Position numbers and translations under genes: made by a program. DNA of 20,532 nucleotides, taken from the IMG/VR virus record IMGVR_UViG_3300046474_000274, positions 100,425 through 120,956 of that record; one strand, 5' to 3'. The notes beneath the pieces are model-generated. The model saw only the letters and a program-made list of their open reading frames with translations, was not told the DNA's origin and ran no database searches. This document shows, in pieces, positions 1-17,559 of the stretch (position 1 is the first letter of the stretch; every line of letters begins with the position of its first letter). The stretch is from a virus (taxonomy: Duplodnaviria > Heunggongvirae > Uroviricota > Caudoviricetes).

Positions 1-624
1 TGGCTCAAGGAATACGAGGCCAACGCCAAGCGGCACCCCGACGACCAGGTTGCGGCCGTTGCCACCTCGATCCAGAAGTTCGGCTGGACCTCGCCGATCA
101 TCGTCTGGAAGGACGGCACGATCATCGCTGGCCACGGCCGGCGCAAGGCGGCGCTGAAGCTCGGCTTGAAGAAGGTGCCGGTCATCGTCCGGCGCGACCT
201 TACGAAGGCCCAGGCCGACGCGCTGCGCCTCGCTGACAACCGCGTTGCCGGCACCGACTACGACCAGGCCGCGATCCAGATCGAACTGCAGCGCCTGGCT
301 GACGAGCTGGACGGCACGTTCGAACTGTCCGATCTCGGCTTCACCGATAAGGAACTGGATTTCAGCCTGGCTGAGCTTGGCGAGATTTCTGACGATCTCT
401 TCGTGGACGACATCTCCGGCGCCGTCGAGACCCAGAAGGAAGAGAACAAGGCCAAGGTCGAGGCAACCGATGACACGGCCGCTCCCGTCGGCGATGCCCT
501 CGGCTTCAAGCGGGTGACCATCGAGCAGAGCCGCAAGCTCAAGGGTCTGATGGCCGGCATTGAGATGAAGACCGGACGGAAGGGCGTCGAAGCCCTGATC
601 TACGTCCTTTCTGATGCGCAGTGA
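1..624 (+). CDS. ParB/Sulfiredoxin-like N-terminal domain protein (5' end outside window)
   Basis: Frame 1 is open from base 1: WLKEYEANAKRHPDDQVAAVATSIQKFGWTSPIIVWKDGTIIAGHGRRKAALKLGLKKVPV...ADNR. It carries the ParB-N hallmarks (SI..FG...PI, IIAGHGR, ADNR). The track start at 166 is an internal TTG. Confidence 0.9.
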   Translation, partial: WLKEYEANAKRHPDDQVAAVATSIQKFGWTSPIIVWKDGTIIAGHGRRKAALKLGLKKVPVIVRRDLTKAQADALRLADNRVAGTDYDQAAIQIELQRLADELDGTFELSDLGFTDKELDFSLAELGEISDDLFVDDISGAVETQKEENKAKVEATDDTAAPVGDALGFKRVTIEQSRKLKGLMAGIEMKTGRKGVEALIYVLSDAQ

Positions 625-626
625 TT

Positions 627-644
627 TAAGTAAGGACTTACTTA
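627..644. promoter_or_regulatory. Palindromic operator-like site, copy 1 (perfect)
   Basis: TAAGTAAG-GA-CTTACTTA fills the 22-bp gap between the stop at 624 and the ATG at 647. Confidence 0.8.
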
Positions 645-646
645 GG

Positions 647-1084
647 ATGACCGAACAGACCGCCGAAGTGATCTCTCTCGCAACCCGCAAGCCCTGGCAC
701 GAGGAGCAGGCCGAGAAGCGCAAGGCCCGCCGTTCCGATGGCCAGAGGAAGCGCTTCGAGAAGGACAAGGCCAAGAAGGATCACAAGACGGGCATGCTGA
801 TCATGCTCGACGAGGTGAGGGCGCTGATCGAGGCCGGCAAGTTCGAGGGTCTGATGATCTTCGGCCGCGATCCGAACAGCAAGGCATTCTTCAACGATTT
901 CATCCTCGATGTCGGCACCGTGCCACTCAACGACTATTTCGGCTTCGCCGGTCTGCTCGACACCGTGAGCCTCGAGCTCAAGCAGTGCGCCACGATGGCG
1001 CCGGCGCTCATGAATGACGGGTCGATCGAGGATCCGTATCTCGAGCCGGAATACGTGATGCTGGACCCGGAGGATTTCGAATGA
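647..1084 (+). CDS. Hypothetical protein (~145 aa)
   Basis: ATG at 647 avoids overlap with the upstream gene (track start 614); typical codon usage; ATGA overlap with the next gene; no recognised motif. Confidence 0.7.
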   Translation: MTEQTAEVISLATRKPWHEEQAEKRKARRSDGQRKRFEKDKAKKDHKTGMLIMLDEVRALIEAGKFEGLMIFGRDPNSKAFFNDFILDVGTVPLNDYFGFAGLLDTVSLELKQCATMAPALMNDGSIEDPYLEPEYVMLDPEDFE

Positions 1085-1722
1085 CCCTCTACACCATCAC
1101 CCGCAAGTTCAACACCTCGGTCGATCGCACCCCGCGCGTGCTGGAGATCGCCGAAGCCTTCGGTCTCGGTCTCTCCGACAAGGAATTCGTCGTCTACAAC
1201 GGTCTCCAGATCGAGATTAACCAGGGTGATGTCGTCTACATCACCGGTCAGTCGGGCTCCGGCAAGTCGCTGCTGCTCAAGGATCTGACGGCACAGATGG
1301 GCGAGGGCGGTCTGAAGATCGCCGATCTCAACAAGGTCGAGCTCGAGGAACGCCCTGTGATCGAGCTGGTCGGCAAGACCACGGTCGAGGCAACCGATCT
1401 GCTCGCCAAGGCCGGCATCTCCGACGCCTACATCTACCTGCGCAAGCCCTCGGAGCTCTCCGACGGTCAGCGCTACCGTCTCAAGCTCGCGATCCTCATG
1501 GCGTCCGACGCCGATGTCTGGATCGCCGACGAATTCGGCGCCGTGCTCGATCGCACGACCGCCAAGCTGGTCGCCTTCTCGATGCAGAAGGTCGCCCGGC
1601 GCATGGGCAAGACCTTCATGGTCGCGACCACCCACGCCGACCTCAAGGAAGAGCTCGGCCCCTCTCTCACCATCACGAAGCGCTTCCGCGAAAAGGTGGA
1701 AGTCGAAGGAGCAAACGCATGA
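1081..1722 (+). CDS. Stand-alone ABC-family ATPase with no transmembrane partner
   Basis: Walker A GQSGSGKS, signature LSDGQ, Walker B WIADEF, H-loop VATTH; no permease gene nearby. Confidence 0.9.
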   Translation: MTLYTITRKFNTSVDRTPRVLEIAEAFGLGLSDKEFVVYNGLQIEINQGDVVYITGQSGSGKSLLLKDLTAQMGEGGLKIADLNKVELEERPVIELVGKTTVEATDLLAKAGISDAYIYLRKPSELSDGQRYRLKLAILMASDADVWIADEFGAVLDRTTAKLVAFSMQKVARRMGKTFMVATTHADLKEELGPSLTITKRFREKVEVEGANA

Positions 1723-2030
1723 TGAATTTCGGCGATGCATTGAACCACCTCAAGTTCGACGGCAAGGCCGCGCGCCGCGGCTGGAACGGCAAGAACATGT
1801 TCATCTACCTGGAGAAGGGCTCCGCGCCTGGCAACACGGCCGTCGAGCCGACGAGCTGGGGCATGGATCTGATCTCCGGGGTCGACAAGGACCATTTCGA
1901 AACCGGCCCCGAGGGCACGACCGTCAGGCTGCCTCACATCAACCTGCGCGCTCCCAACGGCACGATCATTACTGGTTGGCTTGCCTCTCAGAATGACATG
2001 CTGGCTGAAGATTGGGTCGAGGTGCTCTGA
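1719..2030 (+). CDS. DUF2829 / Tad2-like protein (candidate anti-defence nucleotide sponge)
   Basis: N-terminal MNFGDALNHLK..GKAARRGWNGKNMFIYL and C-terminal GWLASQNDMLAEDW match the DUF2829 pattern (F..AL..LK.G....R.GWNG...W..SQ.D.LA.DW). Confidence 0.8.
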   Translation: MMNFGDALNHLKFDGKAARRGWNGKNMFIYLEKGSAPGNTAVEPTSWGMDLISGVDKDHFETGPEGTTVRLPHINLRAPNGTIITGWLASQNDMLAEDWVEVL

Positions 2031-2230
2031 TGGCAAAGCTCGTCACCACCGCGGACATCGTGATTCCGGCCGGCACCGAAGTCGGGCCTGGCCCGCTCAA
2101 GTCAGAATATTTCACCCCGCACGGCGAGATCATCATCGGGTTCGACAAGGACACGACCGGCTCGCTGCGCTTCGACCTCGATGAAGCCCAGGCACTCGGC
2201 CTGGTGAAGGAGGTCAGCATCAATGGCTGA
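2030..2230 (+). CDS. Small hypothetical protein (66 aa)
   Basis: TGATG overlap with the upstream stop (ATG 2030-2032) and overlap with the downstream start; no motif recognised. Confidence 0.65.
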   Translation: MAKLVTTADIVIPAGTEVGPGPLKSEYFTPHGEIIIGFDKDTTGSLRFDLDEAQALGLVKEVSING

Positions 2231-2546
2231 TCGCGGCTGGTATGGCGTCGACTTCGACGGAACGCTCGCAACCTATGACACCTGGAAGGGCATCGACCAC
2301 GTCGGGGAACCGATCTGGCCGATGATCAACCGTGTCAAGAGCTGGTTGGCTGCCGGCCGCGAGGTCCGGATCTTCACCGCGCGCTGCGCCGGGCCGGAAG
2401 ACTGCACGCCGGCGATCGAGAAGTTCTGCCTCGAGCACATCGGCCAGGTGCTGCCGATCACCAACATTAAGGACTTCGGTCTGATCGAGCTCTGGGACGA
2501 TCGCGCGGTTCGGGTCGAAGAAAACACGGGCCGCAGGATCCTCTGA
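2223..2546 (+). CDS. Minimal (capless) HAD-superfamily phosphatase
   Basis: Motif I GVDFDGTL, motif II IFTAR, motif III/IV K...LWDD. Confidence 0.85.
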   Translation: MADRGWYGVDFDGTLATYDTWKGIDHVGEPIWPMINRVKSWLAAGREVRIFTARCAGPEDCTPAIEKFCLEHIGQVLPITNIKDFGLIELWDDRAVRVEENTGRRIL

Positions 2547-2548
2547 CC

Positions 2549-2671
2549 ATGATCATGACCATCATTCTTCTCGTGCTGCTCGTGCTCTACCTCGTTCATG
2601 ACGAAGTGAAGTTTAGGCAGCGCTGGGAAGAGCTACACGAGCTCAAGGGCGACGAGGACGATGCTGCCTGA
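2549..2671 (+). CDS. 40-aa single-pass membrane microprotein (not in ORF track)
   Basis: MIMTIILLVLLVLYLVHDEVKFRQRWEELHELKGDEDDAA*; starts 2 nt after the HAD stop and overlaps the next start, exactly filling the gap. Confidence 0.6.
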   Translation: MIMTIILLVLLVLYLVHDEVKFRQRWEELHELKGDEDDAA

Positions 2672-3524
2672 TATCGAGACACTGATCGAGCGAAACGCGA
2701 GCCCTCGAGCTAATTTCGCGCTCACGGATCACATGTATGTGGAACGTGGGACCAAGGCTGATTGGGATCTGCTGCACGATCTGCACTACAAGGCGGAAGG
2801 GCTGCCGATCGGACCTCAGTTCTGGAAGCTGACGCTCGACGGGCAGACGATCGGCGTGCTCGTCGTCGGGATGCCGAAGGGTATGCTGAAGGAGCGCCAC
2901 CTGGTCTTCAAGAAGCTGGCGCCGGGCTCCGGCGACACGCGGCTGACCAACACCAACCGCTACATCTACATCAATGCCAATTTCCGCGTGGTCTCGCGCT
3001 TTGTCGTGGACACGATGTTCCGCGGCATCGGCGCCGGCTACCGGATGATGAACCTGGTCGCCCGGATGGACGGTCACAGGTTTATCGAAATCCAGTCGTC
3101 CATGTCGAAGTTCAACGCCTTCGGTCAGAAGGCAGGCTTCAACTTCGTCAAGCCGATGAACGCCAACAAGTTCGACGCCGGCATGAAGTTCTTCCGCGGC
3201 AATTTCGAGTCCACGCCGCAGGACTTCGAGGCCGTCGTCAACGAGCTGGAGAATTCGCCGAGGTTCGAGCAGCTCCTCGCCGCCTGCAAGGAATTCTACC
3301 AGAAGAACTCGGCCCAGGAGAATACCGGGTCCGCCCGTGACAAGGCTGACTCGCGCGTGGCTGCCATGACGCCGCGGGACGTGATCAAGGGTATCCAGCA
3401 GATGGCGCTCGCCTCGCCGATGTATGGCATCTACCAGAACCCCGACCTCGGCCGCGCCCTGCCGGAGAAGCTGCCGCTCACTGCCTTCGATCGCCAGAAG
3501 GTCAACGAAAGGCTCGTGCTGTGA
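2661..3524 (+). CDS. GNAT-fold acyltransferase-like protein
   Basis: Acyl-CoA binding motif A: SRFVVDTMFRGIGAGYRMM (~3021-3038), followed by FIEIQSSMSKFNAFGQKAGF, which resembles the GNAT beta5 strand and terminal GF motif. Confidence 0.75.
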   Translation: MLPDIETLIERNASPRANFALTDHMYVERGTKADWDLLHDLHYKAEGLPIGPQFWKLTLDGQTIGVLVVGMPKGMLKERHLVFKKLAPGSGDTRLTNTNRYIYINANFRVVSRFVVDTMFRGIGAGYRMMNLVARMDGHRFIEIQSSMSKFNAFGQKAGFNFVKPMNANKFDAGMKFFRGNFESTPQDFEAVVNELENSPRFEQLLAACKEFYQKNSAQENTGSARDKADSRVAAMTPRDVIKGIQQMALASPMYGIYQNPDLGRALPEKLPLTAFDRQKVNERLVL

Positions 3525-3769
3525 AGCCGCGTCGCACCGAGAAGCAGAAGGAGATCATGGGTCTTATTCTGAAGGCGGCCGGCGAGGGCAGGTTCCTCAC
3601 CACGACCGACATCCATGAGCTCGTCTCCTACGAGGCAAGCTATGGCGCGATCCGGATCTCTATTCGCTTCCTTGTCTCCCAGGGAATGCTGGAACGCCGC
3701 CCGGACGGTCAATTCACTCGTCTTGTTCCCACCTTGAGAGGATACGACTGGTTCCGCCCGACGACGTGA
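3521..3769 (+). CDS. Winged helix-turn-helix DNA-binding protein (82 aa)
   Basis: GTG start overlapping the upstream stop; helix-LTTTDIHELV-turn-SYGAIRISIRFLVSQGMLERR-wing(DGQFTRLVPT..G) pattern typical of wHTH. Confidence 0.7.
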   Translation: MKPRRTEKQKEIMGLILKAAGEGRFLTTTDIHELVSYEASYGAIRISIRFLVSQGMLERRPDGQFTRLVPTLRGYDWFRPTT

Positions 3770-3808: not shown

Positions 3809-3826
3809 TAAGTAATTACTTACTTA
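3809..3826. promoter_or_regulatory. Palindromic operator-like site, copy 2 (1 mismatch), inside an AT-rich island upstream of terS
   Basis: TAAGTAAT-TA-CTTACTTA; 3809-3822 is itself a perfect 14-bp palindrome TAAGTAATTACTTA; 3786-3835 has only 8 G+C in 50 bp. Confidence 0.75.
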
Positions 3827-3914
3827 TATATATCTTACCATGAGAGGACGGGAATGAAGATCCTCCGGTGATGAGATTCAAGGTCCGCGGCATTGAGAAA
3901 ATTTGGAAGAAAGC

Positions 3915-4577
3915 ATGTCTGAAGAAGTCGAAGCGAAGGAAGAAGTCAAGGAAGGCGCCGGCTCCACGGGTAAGCGCCTGTCTGATGCTGAATTCGCCGA
4001 AGCTAAGGAACTCTACGAACTCGGCAAGGCTGGCCTGTCTGAGCTCGCGGATCAGTTCGGCGTCACCAGGCAGGCTCTCTCGGCGCGTCTGAAGAACGCT
4101 GGCGCGGTTAAGGGCTCTCGGGCACACGAAGCTGCGGCTGCAACGAAGAAGGCTGCCACGGGCTCTCCCTCGGCTGCCGCGGCCGGCGCCATCGAGCGGT
4201 TCGTCGACAAGCGCGGCGAGTGGATCGAAGAAACCCGCATCACCGGTGTCCGTCAGCTCAAGCTCGCACGCCAGCTCGCCCAGAAGGCTATCCAGGACGC
4301 CATCTCGGCCGGCCGCTCGATCGCGACCGCGGATGAAGACCTGAAGGCTGTCCAGCGCTTCAACAAGATCCTCGTCGATAACCTGGAGTCCGCCCTCAAC
4401 CTGCTCGAAGCCGACAAGCACGTCGATGAAAACGACCTGCCGACGCTCAGCATCGAAGACCTGACCAACGAAGACATCCTCAAGCACCACGTCGGCACCG
4501 GCGCGCTGCCGGAGGATACGACCGTCGAGGATATGCTGGCCGGCGAGGCCGATCCGGAGATCGAGCTCGATGTCTAA
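3915..4577 (+). CDS. terS: Probable terminase small subunit (N-terminal HTH)
   Basis: HTH LSELADQFGVTRQALSARLKN, helical middle, acidic tail; overlaps the terL start; ATG 3915 preceded by GGAAG. Confidence 0.7.
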   Translation: MSEEVEAKEEVKEGAGSTGKRLSDAEFAEAKELYELGKAGLSELADQFGVTRQALSARLKNAGAVKGSRAHEAAAATKKAATGSPSAAAAGAIERFVDKRGEWIEETRITGVRQLKLARQLAQKAIQDAISAGRSIATADEDLKAVQRFNKILVDNLESALNLLEADKHVDENDLPTLSIEDLTNEDILKHHVGTGALPEDTTVEDMLAGEADPEIELDV

Positions 4578-5841
4578 TCCGATCTCCGCTCTGAAGCTTC
4601 ATCGACTGCAGAAGGTGGTCATGAACGACCGGCACCGCTTCCGCGTCGTCGTGGCCGGCCGTCGTTGGGGCAAGACGCAGGTCTCCAAGATTTCGCTGAT
4701 CAAGTATGCGGCTGCCAGGCAGAAGCAGCTCATCTGGTATGTCGCCCCGACCTACGCGATGGCACGCGACCTCATGTGGAAGCCGCTGAAGGCTGCCATG
4801 CCGAAGGAGTGGATCAAGTCGATCCACGAGACGCGCATGGAAATGATCCTGATCAACGGATCGGAAATCTCACTCAAGGGCGCCGACAAGCCGGACTCGC
4901 TGCGTGGTGTCGGCCTGCACTTCGTCGTCATCGACGAGGCCCAGGACATCAAGGAGGAGACCTGGGAAGAAGTCCTGATGCCGACGCTCGCCACGACCAA
5001 CGGCAAGGCGCTCTTCATCGGCACGCCGAAGTCCTACAATTGGCTCTACCATCGCTTCATGCTCGGTCAGCGCGGCCCGATGGTGAAGGATCACCGCAAG
5101 CGCCTGGTCACCAACGAATGGATGAGCTGGCAGTTTCCGACCATCACCTCGCCGTTCATCCCGCGCAAGGAAATCGAAGCGCGCCGGCGCGACATGGATC
5201 CTCGCTCCTTCCGTCAGGAATTCGAGGCGAGCTTCGAGACCATGTCCGGCCGCGTCTACTATCCGTTCGACCGCACCGAGCACGTTGGCGACTATCCGTT
5301 CAACCCGGCGCTGCCGATCTATATCGGCATGGACTTTAACATCGATCCGATGTCCTCGATCATCGTCCAGGAGCAGCCGAACGGCGAGATCTGGGTGGTC
5401 GACGAGGCTGTCATGTATGGCTCGAACGTCCAGGAGACGGCCGACGAGCTGTCGAGGCGCTATTTCAAGCACTTCAACCAGATCTCGATCTATCCGGACC
5501 CGGCCGGCAACAACCGCAATCACGACCGCGGCGAGACCTCGCTCGACATCCTGCGCGAGTCCGGCTTCAACCGGATCTATTTCAAGCGCAAGCACCCGGC
5601 CGTCCAGGACCGCGTCAACGCCGTCAACCGTCTGCTGCGCACTGCAGAGGGCGACGTGCGTCTGCGCGTGAACGCCAATTGCCGCAAGTTCATCGATTCC
5701 CTGGAGCAGACCATCTATAAGGAAGGCACCAACGAGGTCGACAAGAAGCAGGGCGCCGAGCACGCGACCGACGCTTTCGGCTATTATGCGGACTTCCGTC
5801 ACCCGATGCGCAAGAGCAAGATCCTGGGCGTTTCGATTTAG
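4570..5841 (+). CDS. terL: Terminase large subunit
   Basis: Walker A VAGRRWGKT, LKGAD..DSLRG, Walker B VVIDEA, coupling motif IGTP, RNase H-like nuclease GMDFN, YPDPAG, terminal H..DA..Y. Confidence 0.97.
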   Translation: MSNPISALKLHRLQKVVMNDRHRFRVVVAGRRWGKTQVSKISLIKYAAARQKQLIWYVAPTYAMARDLMWKPLKAAMPKEWIKSIHETRMEMILINGSEISLKGADKPDSLRGVGLHFVVIDEAQDIKEETWEEVLMPTLATTNGKALFIGTPKSYNWLYHRFMLGQRGPMVKDHRKRLVTNEWMSWQFPTITSPFIPRKEIEARRRDMDPRSFRQEFEASFETMSGRVYYPFDRTEHVGDYPFNPALPIYIGMDFNIDPMSSIIVQEQPNGEIWVVDEAVMYGSNVQETADELSRRYFKHFNQISIYPDPAGNNRNHDRGETSLDILRESGFNRIYFKRKHPAVQDRVNAVNRLLRTAEGDVRLRVNANCRKFIDSLEQTIYKEGTNEVDKKQGAEHATDAFGYYADFRHPMRKSKILGVSI

Positions 5842-5843
5842 GC

Positions 5844-5872
5844 TTGCAAGTAAGTAAGTCCTTACTTACAAT
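5844..5872 (+). promoter_or_regulatory. sigma70-like promoter for the portal operon with operator copy 3 (5851-5868, perfect) in its spacer
   Basis: TTGCAA (5844-5849) - 17 bp - TACAAT (5867-5872); TAAGTAAG-TC-CTTACTTA; AGGA RBS at 5889-5892. Confidence 0.8.
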
Positions 5873-5898: not shown

Positions 5899-7530
5899 AT
5901 GGCCGGAACCACGGAACATAAAGACGCGCTGAGGAACTTCTACGATCGCCGGCACCCCGGCTATCAGGAGTCGATCTCGCATTGGCACTTTCTCGACATG
6001 GCCTATCGAGGCGGCCGTGACTGGTTCCGCGACAACATTTTCCGCTACTACAAGGAAGGTGACCACGAATTCGAAAAGCGCCTGCAGCGCGCCTATCGCT
6101 TCAATCACACCAAGGAAGTCGTCGAGCTCGTCCAGAAGTATCTCTTCAAGGGCGAAATCACCCGCAATACGTCGGACGCGCACGATGTCGTCACCAGCTT
6201 TTGGAAGAAGGCGACCAAGGGCGGTGTGTCCGTCGATCAGCTCATGCGCCTGGTCTCCGTCGGTAACTCGACGGGCGGCCGCGTGGCGCTTGTGGTCGAC
6301 AACAACTTCCAGGCCGAGGTCGAGGTCTCCGAAGGCGTGACGCGCCCGGTCTCGATCGCCGAGGCCAAGGCTCAGAATTTCCGCATCTACGCATACACCG
6401 TGCCGGTCAAGGACATCCTCGATTTCGCCTTCGACGAAGATGGTGACGGCGAGCTCCTGTGGGTGAAGCTGCGCGAGATCGCCCGTGACGATCGGGATCC
6501 CTTCTATTCGACCGGCGACCTCATCGAGCGCGTGCGCCTGTGGACCCGCGACGGCTGGGAGCTCTACCAGGAGGTCGAGACCGGCGAGACCACGGTCATC
6601 AACGGCATTCGCACGCCGGTCAAGCAGGTCGAGATGATCGACTTCGGCTATCACAAGCTCGGCTTCGTGCCGGTCTATTTCGCCGATCACACGATCAATG
6701 AGGACAGCTACCGCGTCACGTCCCTGATCGACGATATCGCCTATCTCGATCGCGCCGTCGCCAACTATCTGTCGAACCTGGACGCTATCATTCAGGACCA
6801 GACGTTCTCCCAGCTCGCGATCCCGTCTCAGGCGATCCAGTCGGGCGACGACATGTTCAACAAGGTGCTCGAAATGGGCACCAAGCGCATCTTCGTCTAC
6901 GACGCTGGCGCCGGCTCGTCTGCGCGCCCGGAATATCTGTCGCCCGATCCCAAGCAGGCAGGCGTCATTCTGGCGGTGATCAACAAGATCATCAACGAAA
7001 TCTACAACACCGTCGGTCTCGCCGGCGAGCGCACGAAGGAAGACAATGCCGTCGGCATCGACAATTCCTCGGGTGTCGCCAAGGCATACGACTTCGAGCG
7101 GGTAAATTCGCTGCTTCTGGCGAAGGCTCAGTCCTGCCAGAACGCCGAAAACTGGTTGGTCAAGACCGTGCTTGCCTGGGCAGGCGAGGCGGCTCCGACC
7201 GACGACCTGGTCACCTATCCGACCACCTTCGACATCATGGGCCTGAACGACGAGCTGGTAACCGCCGAGGCACTGGCGAAGCTCCAGGGGCCGATCGAAG
7301 TGCGCCGCGAGCAGATGAAGTCGGTTGTCGACAAGATCTTCCCGCAGCTCAAGAAGGAGCTTCGCAAGACGCTCCACGCCGATATCGACAAGTGGCTCGA
7401 GGGCACTGACCTCCTGCCGCTGCCCACTTCCATCGGTGGCGCCAAGCCCGCTGCCGCCCCCAACCGTCAGGGCGAGGTCACCCGCACCACGTCCGCAAAG
7501 CCGAACACGACCAAGGCTGCAGCCAAGTAA
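5899..7530 (+). CDS. Portal protein (543 aa)
   Basis: Directly after terL; size and mixed helical/beta pattern typical of portals; disordered Pro/Ala/Lys-rich tail. Confidence 0.85.
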   Translation: MAGTTEHKDALRNFYDRRHPGYQESISHWHFLDMAYRGGRDWFRDNIFRYYKEGDHEFEKRLQRAYRFNHTKEVVELVQKYLFKGEITRNTSDAHDVVTSFWKKATKGGVSVDQLMRLVSVGNSTGGRVALVVDNNFQAEVEVSEGVTRPVSIAEAKAQNFRIYAYTVPVKDILDFAFDEDGDGELLWVKLREIARDDRDPFYSTGDLIERVRLWTRDGWELYQEVETGETTVINGIRTPVKQVEMIDFGYHKLGFVPVYFADHTINEDSYRVTSLIDDIAYLDRAVANYLSNLDAIIQDQTFSQLAIPSQAIQSGDDMFNKVLEMGTKRIFVYDAGAGSSARPEYLSPDPKQAGVILAVINKIINEIYNTVGLAGERTKEDNAVGIDNSSGVAKAYDFERVNSLLLAKAQSCQNAENWLVKTVLAWAGEAAPTDDLVTYPTTFDIMGLNDELVTAEALAKLQGPIEVRREQMKSVVDKIFPQLKKELRKTLHADIDKWLEGTDLLPLPTSIGGAKPAAAPNRQGEVTRTTSAKPNTTKAAAK

Positions 7531-8624: not shown

Positions 8625-8671
8625 TTGCGCAGAAGCCCGCCGTTGGACTATTGTAAGTAAGTGCTTACATA
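8625..8671 (+). promoter_or_regulatory. Putative promoter for the major capsid gene with operator copy 5 (8654-8671, 1 mismatch) over the start site
   Basis: TTGCGC (8625-8630) - 18 bp - TATTGT (8649-8654); TAAGTAAG-TG-CTTACATA; the same TATTGT+operator junction occurs at 15853. Confidence 0.65.
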
Positions 8672-9616: not shown

Positions 9617-9645
9617 TTGAAAGTAAGTAAGAACTTACTTATGAT
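9617..9645 (+). promoter_or_regulatory. sigma70-like promoter with operator copy 6 (9624-9641, perfect) in its spacer
   Basis: TTGAAA (9617-9622) - 17 bp - TATGAT (9640-9645); TAAGTAAG-AA-CTTACTTA; same geometry as 5844-5872. Confidence 0.8.
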
Positions 9646-15828: not shown

Positions 15829-15875
15829 TTGTCAAGTCCTCCCGTTTTGCGGTATTGTAAGTAAGTGCTTACTTA
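15829..15875 (+). promoter_or_regulatory. Putative promoter for the tail tube operon with operator copy 8 (15858-15875, perfect)
   Basis: TTGTCA (15829-15834) - 18 bp - TATTGT (15853-15858); TAAGTAAG-TG-CTTACTTA; AAGGAG RBS at 15907-15912. Confidence 0.75.
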
Positions 15876-17541: not shown

Positions 17542-17559
17542 TAAGTAAGTCCTTACTTA
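17542..17559. promoter_or_regulatory. Palindromic operator-like site, copy 9 (perfect)
   Basis: CC-TAAGTAAG-TC-CTTACTTA-GG (symmetry extends over 17540-17561); abuts the AGGA RBS of the tape measure gene. Confidence 0.8.

Follow-up and report, generated by a model that had tools for sequence, protein, structure and literature searches.

The window, as the 20,532-nucleotide stretch of viral DNA analysed here is called (positions 100,425 to 120,956 of IMG/VR virus record IMGVR_UViG_3300046474_000274), opens with a run of genes that encodes a ParB-N protein, a stand-alone ABC ATPase and a GNAT-fold acyltransferase and that is followed by the terminase genes. The conserved core of this run consists of two ParB-N proteins (ParB1-ParB2), the ABC ATPase and the GNAT protein, and a DUF2829/Tad2-like gene, a HAD-like gene and small open reading frames (ORFs) are exchangeable cargo inside it. 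Judged by sequence comparison, the ATPase and the GNAT protein together make up one enzyme, split in two here and encoded as a single polypeptide in many other viruses, and both halves keep the predicted catalytic motifs.

The record is 120,956 bp long and bears direct terminal repeats; the window is its final 20.5 kb. The Rhizobium phages RHph_X66, V1VFA-S and B1VFA share 83% DNA identity with it, RHEph10 is more distant, and the window phage and its Rhizobium relatives belong to the SSU5-type phage-plasmid supergroup. The genes and features at the start of the window are as follows.

1..624, plus strand: ParB2, a ParB-N (ParB/Srx) protein, 5' end cut by the window edge (PF02195, phrog_930)
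627..644: 18-bp palindrome TAAGTAAGGACTTACTTA, between ParB2 and the next gene
647..1084, plus strand: 145-aa hypothetical protein, likely start 647; the start at 614 in the ORF list would overlap the palindrome
1081..1722, plus strand: stand-alone ABC ATPase (PF00005, phrog_293)
1719..2030, plus strand: DUF2829/Tad2-like protein (PF11195, 2e-21)
2030..2230, plus strand: small ORF of about 66 aa (ORF listing and sequence)
2223..2546, plus strand: HAD-like protein of 107 aa with a DFDGT motif read from the sequence (weak matches to phrog_415 and phrog_1238, ~2e-7)
2549..2671, plus strand: hydrophobic ORF of 40 aa (translation)
2661..3524, plus strand: GNAT-fold acyltransferase, 287 aa (AlphaFold, Foldseek, VIA; phrog_886)
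3521..3769, plus strand: winged helix-turn-helix (wHTH) protein, 82 aa (AlphaFold, Foldseek; phrog_900, 2e-9)
3809..3826: copy of the palindrome with 1 mismatch, in the AT-rich spacer before terS
3903..4577, plus strand: candidate small terminase (terS) or DNA-binding protein, 224 aa (phrog_867, 3e-37)
4570..5841, plus strand: TerL, terminase large subunit (PF17289, PF04466, PF03237; phrog_2, 5e-55)
5899..7530, plus strand: portal protein (phrog_145, 2e-93)

The ATPase and the GNAT protein

The product of 1081-1722 matches PF00005 (1.6e-14, 55 bits) and phrog_293 (5e-44). Each of its ABC motifs, namely Walker A (GxSGxGKS), LSxGQ, Walker B (DE), the D-loop (LDR) and the H-loop, is at least 90% conserved across 120 homologues. 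It is the sole bona fide ABC_tran gene of the 120,956-bp record, and no ABC_membrane or FtsX domain was found anywhere in that record, which bears out the complete ABC ATPase lacking any permease that an initial annotation, made from the sequence alone, had described.

The protein encoded at 2661-3524 gave no significant match to Pfam, NCBIfam or PADLOC, and a comparison with PDB sequences returned only acetyltransferases at E ~0.1, aligned at motif A. Its AlphaFold model, built from 24 diverse homologues, reaches a pLDDT of 88 and a pTM of 0.74; every leading Foldseek match to the model is a GNAT (E 8e-6 to 1e-3), and VIA-align yields Z scores of 11-12.4 to 50 GNAT entries, so that the GNAT with motif A proposed for this gene by the initial annotation is upheld. 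Motif A reads R121-G-I-G124-A-G, and the alignment of homologues contains 14 invariant residues, including H42, Y43, R79, R113, R121, G124, E143 and N152. Because motif A, the canonical CoA-binding motif, is intact, acyl-CoA would be the most likely donor. A helical insertion of about 80 aa (model helices 171-250) lies ahead of the final beta-strands, flanked in the model by a two-residue strand at 161-162, taken as beta-6, and a strand at 254-259. The protein matches phrog_886 at 6e-114, and 1008 homologues were found. Both phrog_886 and many GenBank records, those of RHph_X66, RHEph10 and SSU5 among them, label the gene 'ABC transporter ATP-binding protein/subunit'. This label is wrong, as the gene has no ABC domain, and it was probably inherited from the name of the COG2401 fusion. 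The identity as an ABC transporter that public annotation gives to both genes was rejected, since no permease partner is present and the product of 2661-3524 has a GNAT fold.

The relation between the two proteins emerged when the GNAT protein was compared exhaustively with 1.84 billion representatives, which gave 217 relatives, 150 of them listed; a word-index search for longer GNAT homologues had found none, and the fusions appeared only in the exhaustive search. Many relatives are 410-670 aa long, and residues ~10-165 of the query align to their residues ~200-360 (phmmer). An ABC_tran domain lies N-terminal of the GNAT-matching region in all 19 long relatives scanned, several of which also have weak GNAT Pfam matches. 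Among the 150 listed relatives, 59 match the window ABC protein too, 38 of these with 32-47% identity over at least ~180 residues (E 1.6e-62 to 4e-14). The alignment of the fused family keeps the invariant H-Y, the beta-4 Arg and RGxG, the same as in the split GNAT. The names of homologues agree: JGI calls close homologues 'ABC-type ATPase with predicted acetyltransferase domain', a GenBank note for Escherichia phage Cyrano reads 'MK0520 protein...', and the homologue in Klebsiella phage ST13-OXA48phi12.3 also carries a public name of the ABC-ATPase/acetyltransferase type.

Fusion of both halves elsewhere argues, in the manner of a Rosetta stone, for a physical and functional partnership of the window ABC and GNAT proteins, which the initial annotation had paired and which can now be recognised as the split form of a widespread ABC-GNAT fusion. 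Some metagenomic ABC-GNAT proteins are additionally fused to family B DNA polymerase (PolB; P0227, P0263 and P0294), and further fusions join ABC-GNAT to the Gins51 C-terminal domain (Gins51_C; P0181) and to a TFIIB repeat (P0184). One metagenomic ABC-GNAT protein contains an intein with a LAGLIDADG endonuclease inside its ABC domain.

ParB-N proteins, conservation and layout of the run

In full, the ParB2 ORF has 219 aa (upstream locus L089, 7965-8624). A second ParB-N gene, ParB1 (246 aa), lies directly upstream of ParB2, outside the window in the same record, and an SF2 helicase gene shares the divergent region before ParB1, in which a copy of the palindrome is found. ParB2 scores 31.5 bits against PF02195 (gathering cut-off 26.3) and 8e-71 against phrog_930, in agreement with the ParB-N domain initially read at 1-624. 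Its N-domain is most like the ParB-N of ParB-methyltransferase fusions (phrog_498, 1e-37; PADLOC MTase_II PDLC03229, 6.6e-25), and ParB2 itself has no methyltransferase part. Only ParB_N, and no helix-turn-helix (HTH), was detected by the Pfam scan of the ParB2 fragment encoded in the window (residue 13 onwards).

Conservation was followed in 37 IMG/VR viral contigs with full 8-kb flanks, picked by GNAT similarity, a choice that biases only the identity figure for GNAT. ParB, ABC, GNAT and TerL occur in the same order and on the same strand in all 37, the co-occurrence for which the initial annotation had proposed a neighbourhood survey; terS is present in 34 and the wHTH gene in 27. The variable genes are the 145-aa hypothetical (14 contigs), DUF2829 (13), the HAD-like gene (7) and the ~66-aa ORF (6). 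Median identity to the window is 73% for ABC, 66% for GNAT, 64% for TerL, 55% for ParB, 54% for the portal protein, 45% for terS and 44% for the wHTH protein. Among phage isolates, a TerL identity of at least 52% and possession of the GNAT gene pick out one and the same set of 31 records, with hosts in Rhizobium, Pseudomonas, Stenotrophomonas, Xanthomonas, Klebsiella, Escherichia and Salmonella (SSU5). On the SSU5 map, the order ParB-ParB-ABC-small-GNAT-small stands at the right end and TerL at the left end. Since it is present in all of them and conserved at the level of TerL, the ABC/GNAT pair belongs to the universal core set of the SSU5 supergroup and is not a patchy accessory.

The initial annotation had grouped the ParB, ABC ATPase, GNAT and wHTH genes as one candidate system. 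The DUF2829 and HAD genes, which lie inside the run, fall outside the core as cargo, and a wHTH homologue was detected in only the 27 relatives just mentioned. The DUF2829 gene scores 76.7 bits against profile PF11195 (cut-off 25), which makes its product a putative anti-Thoeris sponge of the Tad2 type. For the 145-aa hypothetical (647-1084), no Pfam, PHROG or NCBIfam match was obtained, and ESM Atlas gave nothing informative. The 40-aa ORF at 2549-2671, hydrophobic in its N-terminal half and acidic in its tail, fills an apparent gap at 2547-2660 and overlaps the GNAT start by 11 nt; a small hydrophobic ORF occupies the same site in 11 of the 37 relatives, some being lipoprotein-signal-like.

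Start and stop codons overlap along the run (1081/1084, 1719/1722, 2030, 2223/2230, 2661/2671 and 3521/3524), and the end of terS overlaps the start of TerL by 8 nt. Between the run and terS lies an AT-rich spacer of 133 nt, so that the run adjoins terS without being translationally coupled to it. The initial description of a coupled run directly upstream of terS and terL is therefore accurate for the coupling within the run and inaccurate for that to terS. An Rfam scan of the window found no RNA family, and promoter and terminator scans of the window stayed at chance level.

The 18-bp palindrome TAAGTAAGNNCTTACTTA occurs in 7 copies in the window against 0 expected (627-644, 3809-3826, 5851-5868, 8654-8671, 9624-9641, 15858-15875 and 17542-17559) and at 1885, 5310, 7192 and 8627 in the upstream locus L089, where one copy stands before ParB1. 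It is located 20-60 bp ahead of a start codon and precedes nearly every late operon. The initial annotation had placed the run under the same operator as the structural genes; the palindrome indeed stands before both, and its role as an operator is putative. At two sites the palindrome lies within the spacer of a sigma-70-like promoter (TTGCAA-17-TACAAT and TTGAAA-17-TATGAT). It is found at homologous sites in some relatives and is missing from others.

The wHTH product of 3521-3769, which had been recognised as such initially, is modelled with a pLDDT of 93 as a canonical winged helix (H1-b1-H2-H3-b2-b3), and Foldseek aligns it to the winged helices of AF1382, MepR, MecI and MarR with TM 0.72-0.80 (rmsd 1.4 A at TM 0.80). 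As the binder of the palindrome it finds no support: some relatives have the palindrome and no detectable wHTH, and others have the wHTH and no palindrome. Since the presence of the palindrome does not track wHTH homologues, the wHTH protein is probably not its binder.

ABC-GNAT genes in other viruses and related systems

A query with the fused form matched 91 phage records. In viruses unrelated to the window phage, the surroundings of ABC-GNAT, or of its ABC part, are as follows.

Gordonia phage Sisko: ParB, ABC-GNAT, formyltransferase, terminase, portal
Leptospira phage LE4: ParB-like gene, ABC-GNAT, three small genes, TerL, portal
Pasteurella phage Pmp13: ParB, ABC-GNAT, terS, TerL, portal
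Streptococcus phage Javan511 (L087, 3486-5490): ParB_N, ABC, ASCH-domain gene, TerL; no GNAT seen
Rhodococcus phage Jace (L137, 3483-5703): ParB, ABC-GNAT, aspartate decarboxylase, CoA-transferase III; terS ~3 kb downstream
Burkholderia phage phiE255 (Mu-like) and a Porphyromonas phage: ABC-GNAT, then formyltransferase, after tail genes
Nonlabens phage P12024S: ABC-GNAT between primase and helicase
Tenacibaculum phage pT24: matched by the fused query; ABC gene, then a 113-aa gene; GNAT not confirmed

ParB and ABC-GNAT thus stand 0-3 genes before the terminase in Sisko, LE4 and Pmp13. The 'DNA modification methylase' annotated in Javan511 consists of a ParB_N domain only. Proteins of the ASCH type, such as the one encoded next to the Javan511 ABC gene, include N4-acylcytosine amidohydrolases. 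A formyltransferase-type gene directly follows ABC-GNAT in three phages whose hosts belong to different phyla: in Sisko (L085, 1814-2464), PF00551 was confirmed in a gene mis-annotated as a tRNA methyltransferase; in phiE255 (L136, 4589-5203), PF00551 is noted in the record; and in the Porphyromonas phage (L134, 4586-5059), the assignment comes from annotation only. The aspartate decarboxylase of Jace matches PF02261 at 2e-33, and the neighbours in this phage suggest the synthesis of a beta-alanyl-CoA-type donor for the GNAT.

Beyond these phages, 80 other viral contigs, from a different viral group, carry fused forms (L138-L217), with TerL directly upstream in up to 24 of the 52 scanned. The downstream neighbours of the fused forms include DNA polymerases A, B and III, Prim-Pol, uracil-DNA glycosylase (UDG), an N6-methylase, amidoligases and radical SAM enzymes. 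Three of the associated activities, formyltransferase, PanD with CoA-transferase, and amidoligase, resemble steps by which a hypermodification pathway would tailor its donor or product. The adjacency of TerL in two gene orders, together with the fusions to replisome proteins, argues for an enzyme that acts on viral DNA. In the same set, at least 10 contigs end at the stop codon of the fused gene and about 10 more end within the gene or no more than 100 nt past it; contig ends near the fused gene may reflect provirus-boundary trimming or a genome terminus.

A passage in Iyer et al. 2021 (PMC7824862), citing Iyer, Zhang, Burroughs and Aravind (NAR 2013), presents ABC-GNAT as an in-silico prediction, an acyl modifier of a DNA base, with Tenacibaculum phage pT24 as the example of the system. 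A literature search found no experimental work on the ABC-GNAT system. The window enzyme shares with this system, which also goes by the COG2401/MK0520-type name 'ABC-type ATPase fused to a predicted acetyltransferase domain', the same two domains, homologous to both halves of the fusion, and the same predicted role. It differs in being divided over two genes with up to four cargo genes between them, and in being set in a fixed ParB-ParB...terS-TerL frame as part of the universal SSU5-type core.

The Mom protein of phage Mu has a GNAT fold and hypermodifies adenine at N6 in dsDNA, with Gly-tRNA as its donor; its key residues are H58, Y59, R111, S124, D149, R151 and Y159, and its helical insertion is essential (PMC13219725). 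Mom is nominally the top VIA match of the window GNAT (8bv8, Z 12.4, 143 residues, rmsd 3.4 A), a rank that it shares with dozens of other GNATs. The two proteins are alike in the GNAT fold and in being encoded by late phage genes; the helical insertion late in the fold may be a further point of likeness, and H42/Y43 and the beta-4 arginine R113 may correspond to Mom H58/Y59 and R111, on a by-eye reading and a non-significant hhalign alignment. The region of Mom S124 is replaced in the window GNAT by the CoA-binding motif A (RGxGxG; RGIGAG), a substitution that suggests an acyl-CoA donor rather than an aminoacyl-tRNA and is consistent with the CoA-transferase neighbour in Jace. Mom acts alone, whereas the window GNAT is paired with ATPase and ParB genes. 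Membership of the Mom family itself was rejected: PF25680, which scores Mu Mom at 253 bits, had no match at E up to 10 in the GNAT or across the phage genome, and hhalign against Mu Mom or a 32-sequence Mom alignment gave a probability of ~1%, the Mom relatives fetched from viral contigs being 85-100% identical and thus too close for a sensitive profile. The analogy to Mom drawn in the initial annotation accordingly survives at the level of the fold and fails at that of the family.

The second analogy drawn there, to TmcA, is likewise a match of folds that does not extend to the class of the ATPase. TmcA and NAT10, which N4-acetylate cytidine in tRNA and rRNA, resemble the window pair in joining an ATPase to a GNAT, one that in the window would also act on nucleic acid, and match its fold (2zpa, E 6e-5; 9j3c, E 5e-5); they differ in that their ATPase is of the helicase type (DUF699) rather than an ABC domain and in that the context in the window and of the fused forms is DNA-related (ParB, terminase, PolB, GINS). 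Membership of the TmcA/NAT10 group was rejected on the ABC identity of the ATPase partner and the lack of a PF05127 match.

A precedent for the ParB genes comes from a phage ParB-N protein without a DNA-binding domain, which activates its cognate thymine dioxygenase on dsDNA (PNAS 2026, PMC13229309); genome mining in the same study often placed genes for ParB (27%) or terminase (19%) beside such DNA-modifying enzymes. The window resembles these 5mYOX/ParB pairs in having a ParB-N protein, with no HTH detected in its window-encoded part, that adjoins a candidate DNA-modifying enzyme. It differs in that this enzyme is an ABC-GNAT acyltransferase rather than an Fe/2OG dioxygenase and in that the window phage has two ParB-N paralogues.

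Function of the core and alternative explanations

In the mechanism proposed here, ParB1-ParB2, the ABC ATPase and the GNAT would constitute a late-expressed, ATP-dependent acyl-transfer machine working on the phage's own dsDNA before or during packaging. The ParB-N proteins would recruit or activate the ABC2-GNAT complex on double-stranded phage DNA late in infection, and binding and hydrolysis of ATP by the ABC dimer would engage or open the duplex or give access to the base. The GNAT would then move an acyl group, most likely from acyl-CoA, onto the exocyclic amine of a DNA base, and the modified DNA would be packaged by the adjacent terminase, its acyl mark protecting the packaged DNA from host nucleases or tagging phage DNA as self. 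The wHTH protein would be a frequent accessory DNA-binding partner. The claim that the core is an ATP-dependent machine that acylates phage dsDNA before or during packaging is assigned a probability of roughly 0.5. Support for DNA as the substrate is contextual and comes from the PolB and GINS fusions, the precedent of ParB as an activator (PMC13229309) and the donor-tailoring neighbours of the fused forms. The further claim, that virion DNA of SSU5-type phage-plasmids, the tractable Salmonella, E. coli and Klebsiella members included, bears on its bases a chemically new acyl mark, placed after replication by an ABC-GNAT that ParB activates, that ATP drives and that has a functional link to the terminase, is put forward tentatively, as a possibility somewhat short of even.

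Several observations weigh against acylation of phage DNA. The fold matches cannot assign the substrate of the GNAT, whose helical insertion is not basic-looking when the sequence is read by eye, and by sequence the ABC domain has its closest relatives among transporter-type and ABCE/ABCF nucleotide-binding domains rather than in Rad50, SMC or UvrA. The neighbourhood of the terminase may reflect late co-expression alone. An anti-restriction accessory would not usually be present throughout the group and as conserved as TerL, a pattern that would also fit a role in the packaging machinery itself. The literature search yielded no report of modified DNA for SSU5-type or Rhizobium RHEph10-type phages. 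Finally, the best Foldseek E-values for the GNAT belong to small-molecule (polyamine, arylalkylamine) acetyltransferases.

Conservation of this kind, at the level of a core gene, is also what favours a protein as the substrate, in which case ABC-GNAT would acetylate, late in infection, either a host protein or one that belongs to the packaging apparatus or the virion (terminase, portal, capsid, or ParB itself), and the ATPase would act as a regulator or engage the substrate. The adjacency of TerL in two gene orders speaks for this as well, and the matches tied with the best in VIA include RimI, Ard1/Naa10, GCN5 and HP0935, which are N-terminal or lysine protein acetyltransferases. The PolB and GINS fusions tell against it, the neighbouring UDG, methylase, formyltransferase, PanD/CoA-transferase and amidoligase genes are more like nucleic-acid hypermodification clusters, and ParB partners have been tied experimentally to DNA-modifying enzymes (PMC13229309); acylation of a protein is thus considered unlikely. 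If RNA were the substrate, as it is for TmcA/NAT10, the enzyme would use ATP to acetylate cytidine at N4, or to attach another acyl group, in tRNA or mRNA of the phage or its host. TmcA and NAT10 are the known nucleic-acid acetyltransferases that combine an ATPase with a GNAT, Foldseek places TmcA (2zpa) and NAT10 high among its matches (E 5e-5 to 6e-5), 2 of the genes found downstream of fused forms encode a NAT10/TmcA helicase domain, tRNA genes are present in relatives of the phage, and an ASCH gene adjoins the module in Streptococcus phage Javan511. This explanation is improbable all the same, given that the ATPase is an ABC domain and not of the TmcA/NAT10 helicase type, that the TmcA/NAT10 alignments have an rmsd of ~14-15 A with TM-scores no better than those of other GNATs, and that the associations with ParB, terminase, PolB and GINS point to DNA.

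The small-molecule matches, the best of which by E-value are polyamine, agmatine and dopamine N-acetyltransferases, would be accounted for if the GNAT acylated polyamines co-packaged with the DNA, a host immune signal or an antibiotic-like molecule, as anti-defence or metabolic cargo, and the Tad2-like anti-defence gene between the two halves fits such a role. Cargo genes are patchy, with the Tad2-like gene in 13 of 37 relatives, yet ABC and GNAT are universal and conserved at the level of TerL, and the ABC ATPase and the fusions to PolB or GINS are hard to explain on these terms, so that a small-molecule substrate has little probability. Least credible, with only a slight chance, is that ParB-N and ABC serve partition of the phage-plasmid or condensation of its DNA and that the GNAT is incidental. 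ParB-N is the fold of partition proteins, phages of this group resemble plasmids, and RHph_X66 has a ParA-like gene ~3 kb upstream; on the other side, ParB and ABC-GNAT precede the terminase in phages of unrelated hosts (Sisko and Pmp13, and Javan511 with ParB and ABC), Javan511 takes its name from a sequenced host strain, a hint that it is an integrated prophage, no HTH was detected in the window ParB2 fragment, and the genes lie in a late operon with the palindrome of the structural genes and encode a GNAT with invariant catalytic residues.

The idea of acyl transfer to DNA, which the initial annotation had put forward as a modification system, agrees with the in-silico prediction in the passage of PMC7824862 and is therefore not new. 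This analysis adds the evidence on split and fused forms, the universality in the SSU5 group, a degree of conservation that equals that of TerL, the fold models, the negative test for Mom and the wider genomic context. The name 'ABC transporter ATP-binding subunit', under which the GNAT gene appears in public records, hides the ABC-GNAT system. As the system is universal in SSU5-type phage-plasmids, some of which have E. coli K-12 or Salmonella LT2 as hosts, the 2013 prediction is directly testable. If phage DNA is indeed the substrate, the core would represent an undescribed type of enzymatic DNA base acylation and, after Mom, a second and mechanistically distinct class of DNA-acylating GNATs. 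Its ATPase would then provide the first known case of an ABC ATPase partnering a GNAT that modifies nucleic acid, and the activation of DNA-modifying enzymes by phage ParB proteins, proven only recently, would extend to a further system. In other phages, the formyltransferase or PanD/CoA-transferase neighbours would diversify the acyl group.

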